This document shows, one piece after another, positions 3,180-58,883 of a stretch of 64,000 bases of DNA. Within the stretch, counting starts at the first letter, position 1. Each line of letters starts with the position of its first letter. A program made the translations under genes and the position numbers. The stretch is from Tricharina praecox. Lineage: Eukaryota. The notes under the pieces are model-generated. The model had not been told where the DNA came from. It worked only from the letters and a program-made list of their open reading frames with translations, and searched no databases. The stretch spans positions 434,001 through 498,000 of the forward strand of contig NW_026250429.1 in assembly GCF_024521635.1 (NCBI RefSeq). Direction: 5' to 3'.

Positions 3180-4105
3180 AAGTTGCAGTGGCCATTGGCG
3201 GCGGCGGTGGGCTGCAAAAACCCGTGCTCGACCACGAGTCACAGGTTGTGTCACTCAAACGCGGGTGTTATGTACATGCGAGGCTGTCTTCTCGGATCGG
3301 AGTTCTCAATCGTGCTCGGGATGGAGATGCTTGACTGACAAGTGACGGGGGTGGGTTGCCGAGGTGGGCTGTCGAGGGTGACGAAGATAGGCTGACGAGA
3401 GCGACGGAGGTGGGCTGTCGAAGGCCATTGCACTGGCAGGTTGCAGACTTGCAGCGGCGGCGGTGACCTAACACCGTCGATCGCGGGTGTTATGTACGAG
3501 GCTTGCTTCTTGGAATTGTCAATCATGCTCGGGATGGAGGTGCTCGACTGGAGGAGGTGGGCTGTCGAGGGCTGTCGAGGGTCAATTGCACCTGGCAGGT
3601 TGCAGACTTGCAGTGGCGGCGGTGACCTAACACACTCGATCGCGGGTTTTATGCACGGAGCTGTCTTGTTGGAGTTGTCAATCATGCTCGGGATAGAGGG
3701 TGCTCGACTGACAGGTGACGGAGGTGGGCTATCGAGGGCTGTCGAGGTCAATTGCGCCTGGCAGGTTGCAGACTTGCAGTGCCTTTGTTTTTTTTGTGTA
3801 TTCATTGATTGCATGCGACCTGTGGCAATGGTTGCAGTCCCAGCGGTGACCTGCCAAAAATTGTGCTCGACCACGAGTCATAGGTTATGTCACTCGAATG
3901 TGGGTTTTGTGCACGAGGCTTGCTTCTCGGACTTATCAACCGGGCTCGGGATGGAGGTGCTCAACTGACAGGTGCTCGATTCATGGGTGGCGGAGGTGAG
4001 CTGACGAGGGTGGGCTGTCAAGGAGGCGGGCTGTCGAGGGCGGACTGTCAAGGGTCAATTGCACTCGCCAGGTTGCAGACTTGCAGTGGCCGCGGTGACC
4101 TGTCA
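3180..4105. repeat. Four diverged tandem copies of a ~160-290 bp unit
   Basis: CAGGTTGCAGACTTGCAG near 3437, 3597, 3762, 4069; GCTCGGGATGGAG-like motif near 3314, 3527, 3687, 3944; GTGCTCGACCACGAGTCA near 3224 and 3863. Confidence 0.85.
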
Positions 4106-5424
4106 AATACCGTTCTCGATCACTACACAGGAGGCTGGTGTTGGGAATCGGGTGATGAGCTTGCCATTCACGCTCTCGATCACTACGTAGGGGCCCTGGT
4201 GGTCGGGGATCGGGTGTTGAGTTTGCTTGCCATTCACGCTCGGGCGGAGGAGGGGAGCGGTGCCTCTGGAGCCGTACAGGAGTATCCGGCAGGGTAGGTG
4301 TTGCCTGTGCTGGGTGTGGACAATGAGCGTGACCATGTTTTCCTTTGTAAAACTGGTTGGGAGGCAGCGGCACAGCAACGGGCCGTAGCGGGCAGTGGGG
4401 CTTGCTCTCTACCCTCGCCGAGCTTGGAGGAGCTTGCAGGAGAGGGCAGGAAAGGTCGGGTTGTGGTCGGCATAGGTAGGCAGTCTAATAAGGCCGTGTG
4501 TAACAGTAAATAGACGTTCGCTGCGTCCCATTCATACGCGGAGGAGCTAGGCAAATAGAGAAATCCGGCTCACCCGGAGCTGAGGATACGGCTTGTGCGC
4601 GGTTACTATCTCACTCAGTAGTCGAGTGACGTCGTGTTATCGGTAGTCCGATGGCTGGACAAGATGAATGCGGCGCCAGACAAAGTGGTAGTAGGGCGAC
4701 CCGCGGTACACCTCCACAAAAAGAAAATTCAAAGCCGTCTTCCTAAAGCTCTACCAGATCTCGGTGACAGTTTTGCCGACTGATTACTACCGCCTGTACA
4801 TTCGGAATCGAGAATGGATGGTTGTCGGTCCGGGGGTGCCTACGTCAACAAGCCCGCGATGACGAGGCCGCACTGATCGGCCACTCCGGCTGGTGCGAAC
4901 CCTCTCCCTCTTTCCCGAAGGTGAATTAGTGCCCTTCCGATAGTAAATGCCAATTTCCAGCCAGCCACAGCCGCACAGGATGGGGCTGTAACACCATCCG
5001 AGTGATCTCATGTGATTGGCCTATTTGGGCCTGTAATTGCATCATTGCTATCGGCCAGGGGTCCTTCGCTGTCTTCCGCGTGCAGCTTGCACACATACGA
5101 CCGAGGCTGTCTACGAGGTCTACGAGGTCATGAACAGGAGAATGTATCGGGACCAGAAGCCAGAGTCGAAAATGGGATTATTGAGACCTGGGACGCGTTT
5201 TTTTATTTGTTTATTTATTTTGGCATTGTCCTGTTGACCTGATGATGTTCTCTACGTTATTCGCTGCTCTCGCTCTTTGCGACTGCTTTTCTGCCGTGCT
5301 GCGGCTATGCCCTTTCGACGGAGCTGCAGCCCACAATGGCTACTTAAACCCCCCCTCCCCCCTTCTCTCGCTCCTTCTCTTCCTTCTTCCTCCCTCATAC
5401 TCATCTCTCATTCTTCTCTCCTCA

Positions 5425-33700: not shown

Positions 33701-35101
33701 ATACGATGATGCGATTGAGGAAAAGCGAGAAAAAAAGAAAAACAAAAAACAAAAAACAAAAGACAAACAAAAGAAACAAAAAGCCAAAAAAAAAATAAGG
33801 CCCCGTTCCACGCACAATGCACATCCGCTCGTGAGCTGCGGCTGGTCTGTACCAGTACTAGTAGTTTTTCTTTTTCCCCGACGCCGACGCCGAATGATGA
33901 CGCCGATGATGACAGCAGCAACAGAAGGCGGACGGCGGCGGCGGCGGGCGGCGAATACGGACCGCTTTCGGAAGTCCTCCGGAAGGAGTTACTACCGCTA
34001 CCATGCTTCGCGGCTTCATCTCGCCTTCACCGGAGCCTGGACAACCCACCGGCGAACAACCCACCGGCGAACACCCACGGTCCACCACGGCCCACCAGCA
34101 GACGGTCCACCCCACCCCACCCCACCCCACCCCATCCCATCCCATCCCATCCCACCCCACCAGACCCCACTCAGTCCCACCTATATAGAGGGCGGTTTAA
34201 GGCTGCCGCTGCTCTCGAAGGTACCGGTACCAGGAACACCGCGTCATGGGCTCGGAACACTCGTCTGGGGAAGCCCTACTCTTCCCCCCTCCCCCCCCCC
34301 TCCACCAGGTACCCCCGTAGGCCGTACCCACTCCGTCGGTACGCAGTGCGCGGTACTACTATACGCGAGTGCTAGACCGTGAATAACCCAGTGGCCAGCC
34401 CCGGGCTTCGGGGTCCGGGGATCATGCTTGCCCAACCGCCTGCCGACTGGGCGAGGATGGAGGAGTGGGGAGGGGGCGAGGAGGGAGCGAGGATGAGCCG
34501 ATAGACTGACTGAATGATTGACTGACTGACGGGTGCCGCATTGCCGGTTTCAGCCCCGTTTCGGAGTCGGGGAGATGGCCGGAGTGTATGTACTATAACA
34601 AGGCGGCTGGCCGGGGCAGCGGGATAATTGGCTCCGGGCGATGGGTGATGTCTCTAATCGAACTATATGTACCTAGGTAGAGTACCTAGGTAGAGTGGGT
34701 GGTTGGATTTCCGCATGTGAAATTTGAAGGAAGAAGCGAAATGATGGTTATCTGTCATGGTGGAGCACTCGGTCTGGCCTCTCTTGGTGGCGGTGGTGCT
34801 CCATCTATCCGCCAGGGTTCTAGATAGGCTGCATGCGAAATAAAACAGGAAGATCTCTCTCTCTATCCGCCAGGGTGGGCCGATTCTCGAGATTCTCGAG
34901 CCTCAAGACCTCTGACCGGTTATCACGAGCGTTTCCGCTGGGTCTCGGACCGTATCATATGCATGATCTCGGTCGGCCGGCTTTCGACCGGTCACTCATA
35001 ACCAGCACCGCAAACCCTCCATTTGACCGAGTACGGCACCTCTGACGGGGTGGGAGCATTTATACGGTAGATCAGATGTGGTTGGGACATGGTCGTACAT
35101 A

Positions 35102-35287
35102 CTGTATAGTCAAGGGGGGGGGGGGGGGTAGAAAATACGCTTGTTTCCCACAGGACGCATATTGATATCGTATAAGGGCATAAAAAATACGTATTTAGAC
35201 TGTACTGATACGATATCACTAGCATTTTCTTAAAGATACGTTAGCACTACAATTTGTTTTGCCCCCCTCCCCCCCTTGACTATACAG
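35102..35287. mobile_element. 186-bp MITE, TA target-site duplication (Tc1/mariner-type, non-autonomous)
   Basis: Terminal inverted repeats CTGTATAGTCAAGGGGGGG (19 bp perfect, ~30 bp imperfect), flanked by TA at 35100-35101 and 35288-35289; AT-rich non-coding interior. Confidence 0.88.
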
Positions 35288-35483
35288 TAGGTACCGCGGG
35301 GTAAGCACTATGCTCCCCGGATTATGACGTGAAATACCCACCCAGGTAGTTTGGTGAGCGATTTTACTTGTCATATCACTCGCGCGGAGTTGGTGAATAG
35401 AGGTGGGTAATATTCGATGTCGGTTGAATGAGCGTTTAGAGGCAGCGGTGGATCCGTGTTTACTTAGATAGGGTGCGTGAATG

Positions 35484-47376: not shown

Positions 47377-48038
47377 ATGATATCTCTACAGCGAATATCG
47401 ACGCTCAATCTGGTCCTCGACACACCAAGAGGTTCGTCCTCTCCATCACCATGCGACATACCATAGTTACCGAACAACCACTCCACATCCGCCAATACTG
47501 ACATCCTCGATTCCCACAGGCCGCGGAGTATTCGCCAGCGCGCCCATCGCAGCGGGCACGATAATTGACACGGCGCCGGTCCTGCTGCTAGGCGAGGCCG
47601 AGTTCGCCTCGCACATCACGCACACCTCACTCCTAAACTACAGCTAGTACCGCACCTTCCGCCTCACCTCCCCCCTCCCCCCTCTCCCCTCTATGTACAC
47701 ACACCGCATTAACGCTCCCGCCCCTCTCCTCGCCCACCAGTAACTGGCCGACCGCCGACCCCACCACGCCCGGGAAAACAGTGCTTCGACAGGCAATCGT
47801 CCTGGGCCTCGGGAGCATGTTCAACCACTCGTACCGCGCGCAGAATGTTGGCTGGAAGAGGGATCTCGAAAGGCAGGTCGTCGTTTACACCGCCCTGAGG
47901 GATATCGACTTGGGCATGGAGCTGCTTATCTCGTATGGTCCTCATCTGACTTTTGTCGATGTTGAGGAGATGGAGGTGAACGGCGAGGCAGAGGAGTCGG
48001 CGCTGGATGTGCTCGGACGGATCGAGGTGGATCTGTAG
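47377..48038 (+). CDS. Small SET-domain lysine methyltransferase (S. pombe Set7-like). Exons 47377-47431, 47520-47646, 47741-48038
   Basis: GRGVFASAPIAAGTIIDTAPVL, YSYNWP, LGLGSMFNHS, ALRDIDLGMELLISYG. Confidence 0.9.
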
Positions 48039-49765
48039 GCGGTGATGTGCCAGTCTCGGTTGTATGCTCAAATAGTTACCGTAGACGGTAGGCACGTGTA
48101 TGATATTTGTGTATGTAGGACTGCATCGATAGCCTGTGGAGTAACCACTATATAGTACCAGTATGATAGCACGTAGGCGGTGCACCGGTAACTCGAGTCT
48201 CGAGTACTTACATCCATAGCTGCAAGGGCCCGTCCCGTGTCTACAGTCTGGCCGTGACATACGACACGACACGTGTGACGTGTGGGTTATGTGGTACTTA
48301 CACAGTTACATGTAGAGTACGGGAGCGCGCTGTATCGCTCCCCGCTCCTCCCCCACATTTCCCACAGTGTTGCGGTTATTATTAGTACCGGTACATATTG
48401 TGTAGTACCCAAGCAGTTACTCAGGTACGCGAGTATATATCATAGCAGTATCGTGGATGGACACGAGTGCTCGATCGATGATTCGATGGACGCGTACACC
48501 ACCGCAACATGGGGCGGTGGGGGAGGCGAAAGTCGGCAATAGTTACTACCTCCTAATGCCATGATCTGATCTGATCTGATCTGCTCTGATCTCATCTGAT
48601 GTGATGGGACGACGTTGGGCGCGGTCCTTCTTCTTCTTCTTGTTTCCTCGCCGGCGGAGAGGAAATTGCGCTATACTACTATGGTGGACAGAAGGTATGC
48701 CTATATGTGGTAAACCTATAGCATATCTCCGGACGAGGCGAAGTTGACGAGAAGTTGACGCGCTGTGCCTGTGGGATCATCAATGATCATTGATCATTGG
48801 TTCGTCCGTGCGAATTGCGAATTGGGGGATTGATGATGGGCTGTGCAAGATATGTACAGGAACTTTACATTCCTGACGCAGGAGGGGGCTGTTTCCTTTC
48901 CTTTCCTTTCTTTTGTTACTCGAGCACGTGCACGAACCCGTCAGGCGTCAGGCGGCTCCGACTTACATATCTGCATATGTACATTCCTCTTCCTCTCCAG
49001 CACCCAGCTCGCTGCATGCACGCATGCAGGAACACGCTGAAACTCCGTTCCATATCCAAGTCCAGCTCCATGTCCGGGTCGGCTCGGGGTGCAGAGGTGC
49101 GCAGGTGCGGAACAGCGGGAACGGCGGAAGTTCAAACCTCAAACCACACTTCCGTAGGTACTCTAGTTACTCTCGAGCACTGTACTCTAGGTGCTCTAGG
49201 TGCTCTAGGTGCTCTAACTACCCGCGTGCGTGCGTGAGTGCGTGAGTGCGTGAGTGACGGCTAGTGAGGCTAACCGACCTACCAACCGACCGACCAACCG
49301 ACCGGCCAACCGACCTGGGGCCAGTGAGAGCACTGCTCGGCGATAGATCTAGATTCGTGCTGTGCTGTGCTGTGCTGTGCTGTGCTGTGCTGTGCTGTGC
49401 TGTATCTGGTACTCTACTCTAGTACTATGCTCTACTCTACCCGCGCATTGCATGGGATCGGGTTGTGTTATGTACGGTATGCTGTGCGTCCGCCGTCCGC
49501 CGTCCGCCGTTCGGTCCGTCACCGTCATTGTCACCGTCACCGTCATTGTCACCGTCACCGTCATTGTCGTTACTCGGTATTATCGGCCGGTGCAACTGTA
49601 TCGTAGGTACATTACTCCAGGTACAGACATAGAGTACCTGCGTGCGTGCGTGCGTGCGTATGGCAAACACTATCGCCCTTCGCATCTCTGATACCCGCTT
49701 TACTACCTGGTAGTATCGTCAACTCCGGGTTCTTGTACGCGTCCTGGGTGCGTTACACGCGCTTC

Positions 49766-49854
49766 CCCCCGTCCCCTGAGCTCCCCCGTCCCCTGAGCTC
49801 CCCCGTCCCCTGAGCTCCCCCGTCCCCTGAGCTTCCCCGTCCCCTGAGCTCCCC
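49766..49854. repeat. 17-bp minisatellite (CCCCCGTCCCCTGAGCT) x5; G-quadruplex-forming potential on the minus strand
   Basis: Five adjacent units, no spacers. Confidence 0.9.
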
Positions 49855-52000
49855 ACACACATTAGTACTCGATCGTGCTCCTGCCAGACTGACAGACTAG
49901 AGCGACGTCGACTCTTGAGGGTTGGGGGGACTTGGTTCTGGTAGGGGGTGATATGTATACGGTTGTGTGGGACAGTGGGACACTGGGGCTGGGGGTAACT
50001 ACCTGGGTGTAAGAGGGTACACAGATATGATATCTCAACGGCCTTTCGGCGCATGCGGCGGTGGGAAGGGGGGGACGTATACTAGTAGACGCATGAACGG
50101 TCTCGGGCCTGTAGAGTGGGTTCTCCTTTTCTACTATTTTATTACTATCATTACTATTATTATTATTTGGCGATGGATGAATGGATGAACCAATGGATGG
50201 GGCGCAGGGAGGTTGTTTGTTTGTTCGACTGCATTTACCAGCAGTCCGTACTTTCAACCTTGAAAAGCTGGGAAAAGTTGGGACGAGATGAGATGGAATG
50301 AGATGGGCTGGCCGATGAGATGTGACGGGCATTGGTAGGTCTCGGTGGTGTCGGTGGTGTCGGTGATCAGTGGTCGGTGGTGGTGGTCGGTGGTCGGCCG
50401 GTGGTCGGTGATCACTTGGTGGTGGTTAATGTTAATGATGTTATGGGGAAGGTGCCCACTGCCCACTGCCCCCCTTTTGGGAGATGAAGTCGGGGTATTA
50501 TTAGACGCAGAGGGTGGGTGGGTGGGTGTGCACGCTGGGCAGTGAGTGTGGATGGTTGATTGCGGACTCTACATATGAGATGGACTCTGGACTCTGGAGC
50601 GCGCGGGGGGAAGCGAGGTGGAAAGTTGATTGCAGTGCGATGCGGTATTGGTAGAGCGGGTAGAGTACTGTAGATGCCCTGACGTTATTGATGCCCTTGA
50701 CTCCCGTTGATGCCCTCAACCTCACATATCACCATCTTTGAAAAGTATGTACAAAATACCCGCGGGTAACTGACGGCGCTTTGGGTCTGGACCCCATCCC
50801 CCCGGGGAAAGCATCCCAAAGGCGGTCGATGACCATCCCAGCTACTCTACTCTACTCGACTCTACTCTGCTGTGCCTCTGGCAATTAATCATCTTCCAAG
50901 TGCGAATAGAGGCTGTATATCTATTGAAGCGGGGAAGGCGAATGTGGGGGGATCCGCTTTTGGTACCTTCGACACTTCGAGGAGTTGTATATAGTAGCTT
51001 AGCACCAGTCAGCGGTTTGGTATAGAGTATCACACATAGAGTATTCGGACACTTGTTGACGTTGTTTAATCTTTTCGAATCGATCCCGCAACTGTGCAGT
51101 GTGTGCAATGCGGCAGGCGGCTTGCTCGCTCACTTTCCTTCACTTTCAAAGTACCGTAACAGGTAACCAAGTAACTCGCATAGATACTCCAAGAGGCAAT
51201 GATCTTTGCCTTACTGTGGGTACGGTGCTCTTTCTGGCAGCTGGTATGTAGAGTAGATATCCCACATCGGGAATCTTGGCTTGTGCTCTGGGGAAAACAT
51301 TCAATCCTTATGCTCTCCCATTCACGGAGTCTCGCCTCACGACCGTCGACCACAACTCATCCAGCACGACACCCGCCGCACAACACACTTCAATCCGCGA
51401 TACTGCATCCTTGAGTCCCTGGCTGCCCGTTTCTTCCCCGTCCCCCAGGAAATCGCCATCCCACATAACCGTGGCGCAAATCTGGCGATTCTGCGTAACT
51501 ACGGTACTTGCCTGTTTAGTGCGCCTTCTTGGGTATGGCAATCCCGTGTTTTCTGGAGTCATCTAGAGCAGGTACGGTACTCTATGTACGGTACTTCTAG
51601 CAGATAGGGTTGGGCTGCAGGTGGACAGGGATGGCCGCTGCCAGGGATCGGGCGTCCCTGCGTCTTCTCGTCTTACCGTTATGTATGTGAGCATCAACGT
51701 TCGTACTTCATGCTGACGAACTTCATTGACGAACTTCGTCTCATGGGCTTTTGCTTTCTCGCTGGCGGCCGAGTCGCTGCGAATACTCTACTTTAACTAC
51801 ACTACCGATACCACCACCGAAGGACCACCACAATACATTACCGGTACCGGCACTTGTCACAGCATCATGGCAGCTTCCTGAATCCTCACCTCCGCTGTTG
51901 AATCCAATCCAATCCATTGGACCTGCAGTTCTCCTGGGCTTGCTATTGCCGCCATACCCCGCAACGAACCTGAAGACCAAAGAGGGTTCCGATGCCGAGC

Positions 52001-53051
52001 GTGGATGGACCGAAGTCCACCTGTACATCCATCCACCTATTCCGTGGGACAACAGGCTCTCGGAACGAATCGTCGGAACGCACACGGCTTATGACTTTCG
52101 GATGGATCCCTATCTCAGTGCAATGGAGGGCGCTATCCAGTCAGTAACTAACGGTTTGGTAGGCATTCGATCTGAGTGGGTTTCCTTCCTTGTTTCCTTT
52201 GCGTATCTATTTCCCGAGCAAATCAACTAATACCACACACAGCAGTGGCGGGGCTGTATATACACACCCCAAGGGACCGAGAGATGCCTCCACAGCACGC
52301 TGTGGGTTTCTACATAGCAACGGGGGTTTGGGATGACCGGAGTTCGCCCGACCACCGGTTGGAGCTCCGTCATGTTCTCGTCGGGGCCGTGTTGGTGGAC
52401 GGGATTCGAGCGGCTATTCCAACTATATATTGCATTCCTCCGCTGACGGTAATTTCCACGGTCACGGGTTGCCTCGGCCATAGCGGTTATGGCGGGGTTC
52501 ATGACGGCTGGAGTGGTTGGTGATGGGTTGGATTATCAGGGGAAAATAATATCGTCAAGCAGAGTGCAAGATGATTGTACAGTACCAGGACCAAAGTCTT
52601 CGTCCACCCGGCATTGGTTTCGGTAGGGAGGTCGATCAAGTACGGTCCGAATATCATGTCGCCGTCTTGTGGGCCCAACAAAGGTGGGGACAGCGGTCGG
52701 ACCTCGTGTGGCTGGTGTGGCTGCTTTTGGACTAGTTTTGGCAAGTTCAGCCACACGAGGTCGACCGCTGTACCCACCTTTGTTGGACCAGCGAGTACAT
52801 CTGGATTCGGAGCGGACGATCGCTCGGGAGTTCCGTGCGGTCGGTAGGGCGTCTGTCACTTCCGAAGCCGATCGACGGGTATTCCCCTGGTTAGTATTTC
52901 GGATCGAGTATTCCCCTGGTTGCGATTCCGGATCGTGAGTGTGGACGAGTCGGTGCCATTCGGCAGGGGGAACGAGCAGGCAGTCGGTAGTCGATATCCC
53001 GGAATGCACAATACGGTAGGGTCCCTTCGAGCCGGGACACTCGGACGCTAC
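52001..53051 (+). ncRNA. Candidate structured non-coding RNA (unknown class)
   Basis: Cluster of hand-paired stems, including a ~43-bp inverted repeat 52670-52790. G-U pairs work on the plus strand only; intron-like 52176-52242; no credible ORF. Confidence 0.45.
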
Positions 53052-54989
53052 TACCTATACATACATGATCATACGGCAGTGCATTTCATCTCCTTTGTGC
53101 GAGTTAAAAATAAGTACATAGATCCTTTCTTATGTACCATCCGTGCAAAAACCTGGAGAAGAGCATCGAGCATCATTGCAGAGGTGTCGTTGCACAATCA
53201 TGGCCCCCACCCTCAAAGGAAATCCGATGGAAGCGAAAATGGTCGGTGGACGGTGGTGGAAAGAGCAATGGTATTTCTTCATTGGCGGCGGCGGCGCTTT
53301 CCACATGCACACCTCTTTCGTCGAGCACCATGTAGGTACGCTTTACTTACCTTTGTATCTACAGCCTTCCCCAAGACTCATATTTTGCTCGAATAGGATC
53401 TACTCCCTTTCCACGTCGGACTCACACTTTTTCTTTTCTTCTTCCCTTTTTTTTTTTTTTTTTTTCCTCGGATGAGATCCGCTCCCTTTTCCATATCGCT
53501 GCCCCCTCCCCTCCCCGGGGGGTCCCCCCCTCGTACTGCAGATGGTGCACAGGACAAGACGGATGCTCAGAGCGAACTATAGTTACTCATATAGTACATA
53601 CATGATGGTTACTGCTGTCTGCCCGTCAATCAAGCAAGAAATCAATCTATTACTGCACTCACCAGCTTTGTCTGCATGTAATCAATTCCAAAGTCCCTGT
53701 GTCAATCAATGTATGTATGGTTGTTACATGCCTCGCTGCGGTCGATGTCCGAGTACGGTAGCCCAGCCCAGCACTGGGCACTCACACGCAAATGTTGGTC
53801 TGGCGTCTGGTTGTCTAGATGTCTGTCTGTCTGGCAGTCCGTCAATCTGTTCGTCAATCTGTCCGGCTGTCCATATGTCTATTCGTCACATCGTCACAAT
53901 CTATCCCCTCCTCTTCCTCATCTCTTCTCGTCGTCCCTTTCCTGGACGTCTCCATCTTCTTTTCTTGGACTGTCTTTCTCCCCCTGGCGCAGAGTGCTTC
54001 CTTCCTAGCTCCTCTGCCTGCAAAAGCTCACTAAGATCAAAGAAGCAACGCAGCGATGCACAGAGAGCGAGGGACGAGTAAACTAGATAGGTAGGTCTCC
54101 TTTAAGCCTGAACACCACCACCACCACCCAAACCACCGCCCAAACCGCTCCCTCCAAAAACTGCAACTACAACTGCAACTGCTGCAACTCCCAACTGCAC
54201 AGCTGCAGCAATCCCTCCCCCCTCCCTCTTCTCTCTTCCACCACCACCACCACCACCACCACCACCCCAAAGGAGAAGCAGAATCCTCGACTACAAACCC
54301 CCCATCACGCATAACTAAAACACGGCCAGTAGAGGCAAGCGCTGTCTTGACTACAACCGCTACCACCACTACCACCACCACTAACTACCACCACCACTAC
54401 TACCGCTACCACCACCACCACTGCCCTGACGCGAACCTCCCTGTCTCATCCGCACTCTCCTTCTTCTGGTTCTCCTTCTCTCTCATCCTTCTCCTCCTCC
54501 TCACCCTCACCCTCCTCCTCCTCATCGTTCAAACCTTCTCCCCTCCTTATACCCCCAGTCGCCACTACCATTACGCGAAGGCGCCCTCTCGTTATCACCC
54601 TTTCCCCAGAAATCGAAAGTCGCAGGCCCCACTCCATTACGCCACCCAGTCTCTACTGCCGAATGTCGTGAACGAATTCTACTCTGTTCAACAATCGTCG
54701 TTAAATTTCATACCGTAGTCAACAGTCCGGAGGTCTTGCGGATCACATCCATACACCCACCCACTCCCCACGTAACCCCCCTTCCCTAGCAATTGGATCG
54801 GCATCGTTGTCTTCGCCTCGCAAAGCTACCGATACATACTCACCCCCCCTCCCAACCCCAACCAATCCCTCGGTAGGGAGATATAGGAGAAGGAAAGAGA
54901 GTCTACAAGGAGGAGGAGGAGTGAGAGATAGATACCTGAGACACAACCGCCGAACCGCAGTAGCATCCACCCCCTAGCAGAACGCGGCA

Positions 54990-57900
54990 ATGTCGACCGG
55001 TAATCTCGATCCGCCTTTGGCCGACTACTTCTGGATCGCAGGAATCGACTCGATCTCGTACGGCGAACACCTCTCGTCCCCCGAATCGAAACCGATCGTG
55101 CGAAAGAGCTTTACGGACCAGCTTTTGGTGGCGATTGAAGCGGAAGAGGAGGGCCACGGTTCGTCCTTGCTGGTCCCCAACGGCCACGGTTCCTCGAACG
55201 GCGGCACGTCGTCGCCTACCAATAGACTCTCGACTACCTCGATCAACGGCGATGTCGGCGGCGGCGCGTCGCCTACCACTCGTTCGCCTACATCCTCGTC
55301 GTCGACGCTCGTTCGGAACGGTTCCAACTCGAGCAACTCCACCATCACGGAGACGTCGGCTGTCACCACACCTCTCAACACCCCCCTCAATACCCCCCAC
55401 AACACCCCCCACAACACCCCCCACAACACCCCCCACACCACCATGATCAATGGGGTGCGGCGCGATTTCGACTTCGATAAGGCGTTGCTGAAGTTTGCGG
55501 CTGAGCGGGATAGCTTCTTGGAGGATCTGTCGTTCAGCGCGGGGACGGTGGTGCCCAGCAAGCCGTTGGTGCACCCCAGAGCGCAAAAGGTTTTCAACGA
55601 GGACCCGCCAAAGCTCGAGAAGGCGAATTCACTGAGAAGGAGGATATCCCTTCGGGACCTCACATCCATGCGGCGGTCACCGTCAGTCATAAATAGGGCC
55701 TGTGAGTTTCACGCGCCATGCGGTGTTTTCGTGATTCTGAAACGCCCATGGGGCTAATAATGTCTTTTTGATAGCATCCATACGGACGGCTCGACGAATG
55801 TCCAACTACAATTCGGTGATACCAGTCCCGCAACCATTGAATACCTCCCCAAACATGCATCCCCTGAAACGAAAATTCGAACCCGTTCTGCTCGACCGCT
55901 ACCCGCCTAAGCACTTGACCGAGGAGGCCAAGCGACGAGGGCCCTTCCCTGACTACGTGCCGATGTTTGCGTTCCCGAACGATGTGAACATTGTTTCAGC
56001 GGACGAGAGGCCACGGTCGACATGGCATGGATTCGTAAGTCTGGCCCTCCCTGTATTGTGTTACGTTGCCTTACATGTATGTGGTGCCTTGGTAGACAAT
56101 GACTGGGGGTGACAATTCGAGGCTACATGGAATATGCGTCATCATATGGTTGCCATTGAATCCTACGGCAGCGGAGGATCTGGAGCGGAGATGCGAAGAA
56201 TGGAGACGAGACAACATGACGGAAGAGGAGCGAGAGTTGGCGGCGAGCTTGGGAGAAAGGTAGGAGAATTCGCAGTGCGTATTCGCCCGGTGGAAGCTTA
56301 TCTGACGTGGGATTACAGACTGGCTTTGGAACGGGCGAAACTTAGCAAGCTTTTGGCTCGGCTACCCGGAGTCGTCAACAACCAGGAGAAGAGGGAGGAG
56401 CTGGACGACGAGATTCTCGCCACCGAGGAGAAGATCGGACTGATGGCGGATCTTCTTCGGCCCGTTCGACATGGTGCGGCATCGAAGATTGAGGGCCTGA
56501 CGGACGGAGAGACCGGCCTGTGGATTCCTAGGGCTTACGGTATCCTCGGAAAGGATGCCTCGCTGACGGGTTTCTGGAAGGAGTGGCTGAAAGCGGTCGT
56601 GGTACCGATGACCAACGGTGCCATCGCCCGTGTTCCACCATCTTCGCCGAGAGTCGGCACATGGCTGCCCCTCGAAAGGTAATCCATTCCCAGTGTTACT
56701 ATTCTCGGTCAAAGTCTAACAGCAACCCTTTCCCCACACAGGTACGTTGTCAATCTTTGCGCAGAGGCACCAGCGCCATTGTCCTCTCAAACGCAGGTGG
56801 AAGTGAGCATCAGGGAGCTTCGTTTGTATGCCAGAAGGGAAGCTGCAAATGAGCTGCCAGAATCCAGAAATACAGATCTGTACAGTTTGTTCAGGGCGCT
56901 TGATATCCAGAACATAGTTGCTCTATTCGAATATGCACTGTCAGAATCTCGCATCATCCTGCTGTCTTCCCATACTTCAATGTTGCACCTCGTATCCCGA
57001 GCTTTGGTGAGCTTGATGTATCCTCTGAACTGGCTGGGAATCTACATTCCGGTCCTGCCAGCTCGTTTGATCGCAGCTCTCGAGGTACATAACACACACC
57101 CCCGCCAAATCTTTGTGGAAGGAGGAAACTGATTATATATAAAAAAACTACGCAGGCGCCGTGTCCATATATCGTCGGTATAGAACGCCGCTACGAGAAA
57201 CTGGAACTTCCGGAGGATGACTTCATCTGCGTCGACCTTGACTCCAACGTCATGTTCAAATCCAACACGGAGCCGTCCCCACTCCCGAGACAGCAGCGTC
57301 GCAAGTTGGTATCCCTGCTCCAATTGGCCGCGCCTCACCACAACCGATGCGGCGTTCCGATAGGACCGCCTCAGTACGCGGTTGAGACATTTCCCCACGA
57401 TTCGTTCATGTCGGAGTATCCGTCGGTGTTTGGCATGAGCCCGCCGCCGAGCATGCTCGCCAAATTGGTAAACCTGAATTCGACGGCTTTCGGCAATGCT
57501 GGCGGTTCCGATTTTGCTCCTAGGCCACCGATCATCAATGCTTTCTCGCAGGCCAGTGGCAACATCAACAACAAGTACGAGAGACCAGGCACCAGCGGCA
57601 CCATCCGCGGCGGCTCGCCGCCGTCGCCTCATTCGCCGCAATCATCGGTACATAATCCGTCCGGGTCAAACGTGTCCAGGAACGATTCCGGATTCACATT
57701 GACGGCCACTCTGCGCGGGAAACGGTCGGGCAACTTTGATGCAGCATCACGACGGAGTTCATCTTTCGGCTTCGAACGGACCCCGACGCTGAGGCGGCCC
57801 AGTCTGCCTTTTGCCAGCCACTCCCCGTCACCTTCGACTTCGTCTCTCGGAGGCAACTCCCAGGATGGCAACTCGGCTTCTTACGGTTACGCACCATCGG

Positions 57901-58883
57901 TATTTGCACCTTCCACTCTAGCCGCATCCACCATCATGCCGAACGTTCTCATGCAGCCCGTACGGAACACTGAAACCACACAGTGGATCGAGGGGCATTG
58001 CATGATGTACAAGCCACATGACGTCGAGACGATCTGCTCGATATGTGAGGAGAAGCCCGAGGATGGAATGTTCACGTGCGGAAGCTGCCGCGTCGCAGTG
58101 CATCCCCGATGCGCGCACATGGTTGTGCTGCCGTGTTCGGCAGCATTCTACCCGGATCAGATCCGGGCAGCATTCGTCCGCTGCTTTGCCAGTCTGTTCT
58201 ATACCTACCGGAAGTTCCTTGGACCTCCCACGGCCGACGGAAAGAAGGCGGGCAAGCTCTACCGGTTCAACATGGATGGATTCCTCAAGAGCATGCCACA
58301 GGAGAACGCCATGTACATCCAGATGCTGGAGCAGACGCAAGCGTTCAGCGAGTTCATCCATGACAGGGAGTCCAAGAAGGCCACCGATCCATCGGTCAAG
58401 CTCTTTGACGAGGTGATCCTTTCGAAGAAGAACCGCGGCAAGACGGGATTCTTCTCGCGATCCAGTATGTTGAACTCGGTGGGCGAGACGGCTTCCTGCA
58501 TGTCTAACTTTGCGACAGAGCCTGCTTATCTCTCGGATACCTCGGAGCACGTCTGGCGGACCGTCAACGCAGTCACGACGTCTTCGAAGGGAAACGAAGC
58601 CAGAGTGTCCCCCAACAGAAGTATGGATCCTCCTCCCTCTTATCGTTTTCTGTATCCTCCCTATCCATCGTCTCCAAATCCTTCCTCCTCCTGCTCATCA
58701 TCCTCCTTCCAGCGTCAATGTCGGTTAACCAATGAATCAGTACCGGCGAAGTTGGACCCTATTCTTCTTAGACCATCCAGGGCGCCCCAGCCAGCCCCAG
58801 CGGCCAATACGAAAGGATCTTCCAGAAAGAAACACACCAACCTACCGCAGGTCCAAATCAACGGGGGAGACGGGTTGTTCTAG
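54990..58883 (+). CDS. DENN-domain protein (putative Rab GEF) with C1-type zinc finger. Exons 54990-55701, 55775-56034, 56096-56259, 56319-56678, 56742-57084, 57156-58464, 58519-58620, 58741-58883
   Basis: PLADYFWIAGID, EPVLLDRYP, FPDYVPMFAFPND, LSESRIILLS, IYIPVLPARL..LE|APCPYIVGI, H..CSIC..CGSCRVAVHPRC..C, QTQAFSEFI; seven canonical phase-consistent introns. Confidence 0.92.

Follow-up and report, generated by a model that had tools for sequence, protein, structure and literature searches.

A spliced intergenic transcript and a near-perfect DNA palindrome in the region upstream of an ascomycete DENN-domain gene

A sequence-only reading of the window analysed here (the whole stretch of DNA, 64,000 nucleotides, from a filamentous ascomycete) had singled out the interval 52001-53051 as a candidate ~1.1-kb structured RNA and as the window's best candidate for an undescribed system. 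We find that the interval probably holds no single RNA gene and that, in the explanation we favour, it is ordinary intergenic DNA in which a non-coding spliced transcript and an unrelated, foldback- or MITE-like palindrome happen to lie near one another. The interval is overlapped by a plus-strand transcript with one intron and contains one 118-bp palindrome, and other structure is absent. We infer that the transcript is non-coding and that the palindrome is a member of a repeat family; both are features of already known kinds.

Results

The interval lies in a gene-poor stretch upstream of a DENN-domain gene

The window is eukaryotic, and a scan for bacterial-type promoters and terminators, which are not relevant to a fungus, gave counts at or below the shuffle expectation. 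The gene downstream of the interval is identified by a Pfam search, in which the ORF at 57093-58883 carries DENN, dDENN and C1 domains. Its first exon (54276-55701, plus strand), comprising leader and coding sequence, is defined by the ORF together with RNA contigs of two runs (X3, record 18; X4, record 25), and the three domains sit in an exon downstream of it. The first ATG of the open frame of exon 1 is at 54990, the same two contigs define three GT..AG introns further on (joints 55701/55775, 56034/56096 and 56257/56317), and RNA contigs cover the mRNA from 54276 onward. A low-level plus-strand RNA contig upstream of the mRNA contig (53799-54057; X4, record 24; depth 7.07) is possibly the upstream start of the DENN leader.

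The best named relatives of the DENN protein are in the Pezizomycotina, at only 55-60% identity (metagenome-assembled genomes labelled Trichoglossum and Geoglossum), and metagenome relatives are 90%, 81% and 74% identical. The closest of these, P0001, which is 90% identical to the DENN exon product, comes from a 17,963-nt metagenome contig, and the locus of a close relative thus exists in public data.

The region from 47385 to 54990 (~7.6 kb; about 47.4-55.0 kb), inside which the interval sits, contains no ORF of at least 200 codons with a domain match. It is rich in microsatellites and low-complexity runs and is unusually gene-poor for a compact fungal genome. An ORF at 47637-48035 (plus strand) has coding-like codon usage, with a GC3 of 0.71, and may be an exon of another gene.

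Several sites between the interval and the DENN coding sequence, or within the latter, vary in length or attract spurious cover. At 53840-53862 the window holds 1.9 copies of a 12-nt tandem repeat, and contigs of metagenome runs X1 and X2 carry one extra unit behind 53839, the X1 contig being otherwise identical to the window; the extra unit reflects either copy-number polymorphism or assembly collapse. At 55392, in DENN exon 1, 12 bases are absent in RNA runs X3 and X4, within a stretch encoding a short repeated peptide motif; the window and the sequenced isolates differ here by an in-frame length polymorphism. At 54319-54519, in the DENN leader, an (ACC)n-type low-complexity tract draws RNA contigs from many other loci, with many loose ends, so that the summed depth there (3273-4503) is meaningless as depth.

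Excess folding energy is confined to one palindrome

The minimum free energy of the interval is -427.1 kcal/mol on the plus strand and -374.8 kcal/mol on the minus strand, and comparison with 25 shuffles per strand yields z-scores of -2.96 and -5.31, respectively. With positions 52672-52789 removed (933 nt left; 25 shuffles each), the z-scores become +0.21 and +1.04. A sliding scan against shuffles, using 53 segments of 120 nt across 51400-53599, gives the same picture: the two segments that hold the palindrome alone stand out (z -5.24/-3.58 and -7.53/-11.77), the segments without it range from -3.04 to +2.03, and 20 control segments in the DENN coding exon reach -2.83. Among the 24 segments that lie inside 52000-53039, the z-scores of the 22 without the palindrome lie between -1.26 and +1.45 (plus strand) and between -2.31 and +1.71 (minus strand). 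We conclude that the excess folding energy of the interval comes entirely from the palindrome at 52672-52789.

The complementary stretches from which a large structure had been built by hand are present in the sequence (for example, GTGGATGGA at 52001-52009 and TCCATCCAC at 52028-52036; likewise 52613-52623 and 52862-52872), and the hairpin at ~52670-52790 is real and far beyond chance. The rest of the stem set pairs in sequence but, by shuffle z-scores and DENN-exon controls, folds no better than chance. The four small stems (52001-52036, 52100-52138, 52333-52373 and 52477-52493) score only -1.1 to -2.7 on the plus strand, and this when cropped exactly to the ends proposed for them, which is a biased choice. 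The flanks of the proposed 'rod' around the hairpin score -1.24 and -0.29, and for the alternative 3' stems (52921-53008 and 52987-53051) the scores are +0.4 and +0.8.

The many G-U pairs on the plus strand, which had been put forward as an argument for a plus-strand RNA, are an effect of composition. Shuffles of the plus strand fold at -396 kcal/mol and shuffles of the minus strand at -340 kcal/mol, a difference of ~56 kcal/mol in favour of the plus strand; the shuffles thus reproduce the strand gap, and the plus-strand advantage and the abundance of G-U pairs come from the G+T-rich composition.

Searches for known RNA families give no match at threshold. Over 50000-55000, Rfam yields nothing at the gathering score and only two matches at E-values up to 10: mir-BART3, at 29.8 bits against a gathering score of 70 (E 0.021), and ST7-OT3_4, at 18.4 bits against 80. 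We regard the mir-BART3 match, so far under its threshold, as generic hairpin likeness. A 9-nt permuted telomere-template motif, taken from the TTAGGG repeat and allowed at most one mismatch, has no match inside 52001-53051 and has 17 matches over the whole window, where 10.3 are expected. With no Rfam match at threshold and no template-like match in the interval, telomerase RNA is rejected, in agreement with the earlier judgement that the interval should not be called one.

These results bear directly on the proposal that the interval encodes a large structured ncRNA of ~1.1 kb, for example a telomerase RNA or a new structured lncRNA. The proposal draws on the many stems that can be paired by hand and on the lower energy of the plus strand (-427 vs. 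-375 kcal/mol). Against it, z is ~0 once the palindrome is removed, the sliding segments agree, one rod flank attains no more than -1.24, shuffles reproduce the plus-strand advantage, and the interval contains neither an Rfam family at threshold nor a telomere-template match. A large structured RNA is highly improbable on this evidence, and the proposal is largely refuted: what was read as a kilobase of structure is one 118-bp inverted repeat that folds equally well on both strands.

The palindrome scores equally as RNA on either strand and as DNA

The palindrome at 52672-52789, identified by inverted-repeat searches (I1 and I2) and by fold z-scores, is a near-perfect DNA palindrome of 118 bp. 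Its 43-bp arms occupy 52672-52714 and 52748-52789 and enclose a 33-nt loop (52715-52747), and the pairing is interrupted by a G.A mismatch (52689/52772) and, in the left arm, by a single bulged G. Folded as RNA, it has z-scores of -9.73 (plus strand) and -10.12 (minus strand), and none of 200 shuffles is as stable on either strand; folded with DNA parameters, it has a z-score of -9.56, and again none of 200 shuffles folds as well. Because the score is the same on both strands, the palindrome does not speak for a plus-strand RNA. Scores that agree between strands and between RNA and DNA parameters are those expected of an inverted repeat at the DNA level.

The junction of left arm and loop carries a 9-nt tandem duplication (GTGTGGCTG twice, at 52706-52723; a Tandem Repeats Finder row with 100% matches), such that the first nine bases of the loop repeat the last nine of the left arm, and several of the differences between copies of the palindrome (below) cluster at these positions. 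The description of the interval as free of microsatellites holds; the only repeats found in it besides the inverted repeat are this 9-nt duplication and a 29-nt tandem duplication at 52876-52933 (two copies, 83-85% alike; repeat searches). The 64-kb window contains no second copy of the palindrome, no direct repeat that would constitute a target-site duplication was found flanking the window's copy, and ORFs across the palindrome have no homologues.

A second palindrome-bounded element, unrelated in sequence to that at 52672-52789, lies at 35095-35294. It is ~200 bp long, has 33-nt terminal inverted repeats that are 94% complementary and end in G/C runs, and has an AT-rich core with a 37-nt palindrome of its own; it looks like a MITE.

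A plus-strand transcript is spliced at the predicted intron

Overlapping contigs of X3 and X4, RNA runs from two studies, tile 51635-52342 on the plus strand. Exon 1 extends at least from 51635 to 52175 (X4 record 22, 51635-51953; X3 record 17, 51850-52164; X4 record 23, 52109-52175), and exon 2 extends at least from 52243 to 52342 (X4 record 23). Between them lies a 67-nt spliceosomal intron (52176-52242) with a GTGGGT donor, a CAG acceptor and an ACTAAT branch-site-like motif at 52226-52231, 12-17 bases before the acceptor. The intron had been predicted from sequence, and the prediction is exact: the joint 52175->52243 in the RNA contig skips precisely those 67 bases, GT..AG. One X4 contig (depth 4.5) carries the joint, its shorter side being 67 letters long.

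Two observations exclude an artefact of genomic DNA. Since X3 and X4 splice the DENN gene at three GT..AG joints, both runs contain RNA; and since both are blank over 50500-51634, the cover of 51635-52342 is not genomic DNA carry-over. Contig depths of the transcript are 4.5-6 and those of the DENN contig are 88-106, contig depth being a poor measure of expression. Being spliced by the spliceosome, this unannotated plus-strand transcript is presumably a Pol II product, as the sequence-only reading had proposed.

The extent and the structure proposed for the RNA do not fit the transcript. Its RNA-covered part starts 366 bases upstream of 52001, and the RNA-covered model has a folding z-score of +0.57, that is, no excess structure. 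The palindrome starts 330 bases past the last RNA-covered base (52342), and no RNA contigs lie over 52343-53798, palindrome included, a hole in contig cover that is not equivalent to evidence of silence. Of the proposed spliced, structured ncRNA, the splicing and the lack of a convincing ORF thus stand, and the large structure falls.

The transcript is most likely non-coding

The longest ATG-initiated ORF in the RNA-covered model has 55 codons and is preceded by three upstream ATG-ORFs. A frame of 179 codons stays open across the splice but has no ATG before 52102. For ORFs of at least 55 codons, codon log-odds are -0.09 to +0.04 and GC3 is 0.47-0.59, which is background level; the corresponding values for DENN exon 1 are 0.18 and 0.77. 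Homology searches are uniformly null: none of 12 regional ORFs is above the Pfam cut-off (one sub-threshold match, to DUF3658, has an E-value of 0.1), phmmer with a 166-aa ORF against 1.84 billion representatives gives no hits, word-seeded searches of two further ORFs give no hits, and a PDB search gives none. Over 51663-52090, the strain represented by X2 differs from the window at nine positions, five of which fall in one codon phase, numbers too few for a test of constraint. A decayed coding gene, the outcome that had been named as fatal to an RNA gene here, is not supported, given the null homologue searches (no protein homologues) and the background codon usage.

The transcript might encode a small lineage-specific protein, for example from the 55-codon frame, which crosses the intron, or from a 79-codon frame beginning at 52284. 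Orphan small genes are common in fungi, and the 179-codon frame is open across the junction. The late first ATG of that frame, the three upstream ATG-ORFs that precede the candidates, codon usage and GC3 at background and the absence of homologues nevertheless make a protein product very unlikely. We conclude that the transcript is most likely a spliced long non-coding or 'orphan' RNA, for which a micropeptide or a non-AUG product is conceivable.

Metagenome contigs suggest further copies of the palindrome

The evidence for other copies of the palindrome consists of contig fragments from metagenome runs X1 and X2. In X1, a soil metagenome, the contigs of this locus are identical to the window, and their flanks reveal no second allele. 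Of the variant contigs in that run, one (record 3, 3743 nt) matches 52675-52762 with its terminal 88 bases, at seven differences, the remainder lying elsewhere, and its depth of 7.1 is the same as that of the locus contigs (6.6-7.6); another (record 4, 77 nt) has four differences and one gap. Five X1 contigs have unlike sequence up to the palindrome arm and join it at exactly 52675. At 52718 and 52741, variant letters recur, each in two or three contigs of X1 and in two contigs of X2.

X2 derives from a strain with scattered differences from the window. In this run, the orthologous left-flank contig (record 11) runs on after 52676 as the reverse complement of 52797 downwards, from which it follows that the left arm of the X2 allele is 11 bases longer, matching the right flank, and that the window's copy is shortened. 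Read most simply, the window's copy would lack 13 bases, bounded by CC microhomology. The longer X2 allele begins and ends with TA, which is indistinguishable from the palindrome itself.

A scan of a metagenome collection with a 20-base arm motif returned two loci, both chance matches inside AT-rich coding DNA, which, like the lack of a second copy in the window, counts against a dispersed family. Copy number estimated from depth is unreliable, in that overlapping contigs and flipped arm alignments get summed.

The best reading of the palindrome, judged from these fragments, is that of a small dispersed foldback or MITE-like repeat, which would have originated by transposition; its apparent presence in multiple copies speaks against a dedicated RNA gene. 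The arms are identical over 55 bases and the differences between copies gather in the loop, a pattern that would also fit selection on the hairpin.

A different account of the same contigs is that the palindrome is an inverted duplication at a single locus, conserved in related soil fungi, for example as cis-regulatory or cruciform-forming DNA upstream of DENN, and that the variants are orthologues. The variant contigs could then carry orthologous hairpins from related soil fungi, with flanks too divergent to pass the 90% likeness cut-off. The palindrome is single-copy in the window, the metagenome relative with a 90% identical DENN protein indicates that related species are around, and the consensus of the X1 loose ends before 52675 has a faint likeness to the window's own left flank, which, with invariant arms and differing loops, would point to conservation of a hairpin and not to mobility. 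But X1 flanking contigs without a second allele, together with a 3743-nt variant contig at locus depth, better fit a paralogue in the same genome, and five different entries into the arm exceed what a few co-occurring species would easily give. We consider a conserved single locus unlikely, while giving it more weight than any other alternative to the dispersed repeat.

Identical arms and variable loops are also what may be cited for a small-RNA locus, in which the transcript would run ~450 bases further, with the palindrome in its last exon, and would serve as primary transcript for Dicer-made small RNAs (milRNA or long-hairpin siRNA). The 43-bp, almost perfect stem would be an ideal Dicer substrate. 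The stem of a typical miRNA precursor is much shorter and less perfect. A plus-strand Pol II transcript begins 1 kb upstream and its 3' end is undefined, and the one sub-threshold Rfam match adduced here, mir-BART3, is to a miRNA precursor model. That match reflects generic hairpin shape far below threshold, the fold is equally good on both strands, and the signs of several copies with other flanks fit a transposable element. Like fungal milRNA loci, the palindrome would be an intergenic hairpin near a protein-coding gene, with a Pol II transcript of the same strand close by. A re-analysis of fungal milRNAs requires small-RNA reads and excludes loci that overlap transposable elements (PMC9757828); the palindrome differs from the loci so accepted in being known from DNA alone and in probably being a repeat, which is a ground for exclusion there. 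We judge a small-RNA locus rather unlikely, slightly behind a conserved single locus.

The boldest form of this idea combines it with the copies: the palindrome would be one of several conserved long-hairpin RNA genes forming a small family, with arms held identical as loops drift, and this copy would sit in the 3' portion of the spliced ncRNA and yield Dicer-dependent small RNAs. We hold this to be unlikely, more so than a small-RNA locus as such and somewhat less so than a small protein. If true, a poorly studied lineage of soil ascomycetes would possess a fungal family of hairpin small-RNA loci, present in multiple copies and served by a defined Pol II host transcript.

Discussion

Our results favour an explanation in which the interval belongs to an extended gene-poor region upstream of the DENN-domain gene and in which its two features would have nothing to do with each other. 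The first is a weakly expressed plus-strand transcript, at least 51635-52342, with one canonical 67-nt intron. Any effect of this transcript on the downstream DENN promoter, which lies on the same strand, would presumably come from the act of transcription. The second would be one copy, slightly shortened, from a small foldback or MITE-like repeat family. As duplex DNA, the palindrome would probably be inert, save for a proneness to cruciform extrusion, slippage and deletion, and it would act as an RNA hairpin only where transcription happens to run through it.

For the transcript, a tandem non-coding transcript that regulates the next gene by transcriptional interference is known from budding yeast, namely SRG1 upstream of SER3. 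The transcript would resemble SRG1 in being a non-coding Pol II RNA upstream of, and on the same strand as, a protein-coding gene. Unlike SRG1, it is spliced, and ~1.5 kb separates its last RNA-covered base from the point where RNA cover of the DENN leader begins.

For the palindrome, the closest comparison is with fungal MITEs, of which 13 families are described in Epichloe festucae (PMC3227409) and of which the mimp elements occur in promoters of Fusarium oxysporum (PMC3599309). The palindrome is like them in that it is non-coding, lies upstream of a gene, spans no more than about 120-130 bp between inverted repeats and, according to the metagenome contigs, is apparently present in several copies with different flanks. 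It is unlike them in that its inverted repeats make up almost the whole element (arms of 43-54 bp and a 33-nt loop), as in a foldback element, whereas the short terminal repeats of MITEs surround a core. It differs further in that no direct repeat flanks the window's copy, in having no known autonomous partner and in its apparently low copy number.

The 'best candidate for an undescribed system' of the window thus dissolves into two ordinary features, and the main value of the analysis is that of a correction: one long inverted repeat sufficed to make a whole kilobase look 'structured'. For annotation, the gain is one unannotated spliced transcript, whose junction had been predicted from sequence alone, and one palindromic repeat. 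If the palindrome family were transcribed and diced, it would provide, in a fungal lineage without small-RNA data, a well-defined hairpin small-RNA locus.
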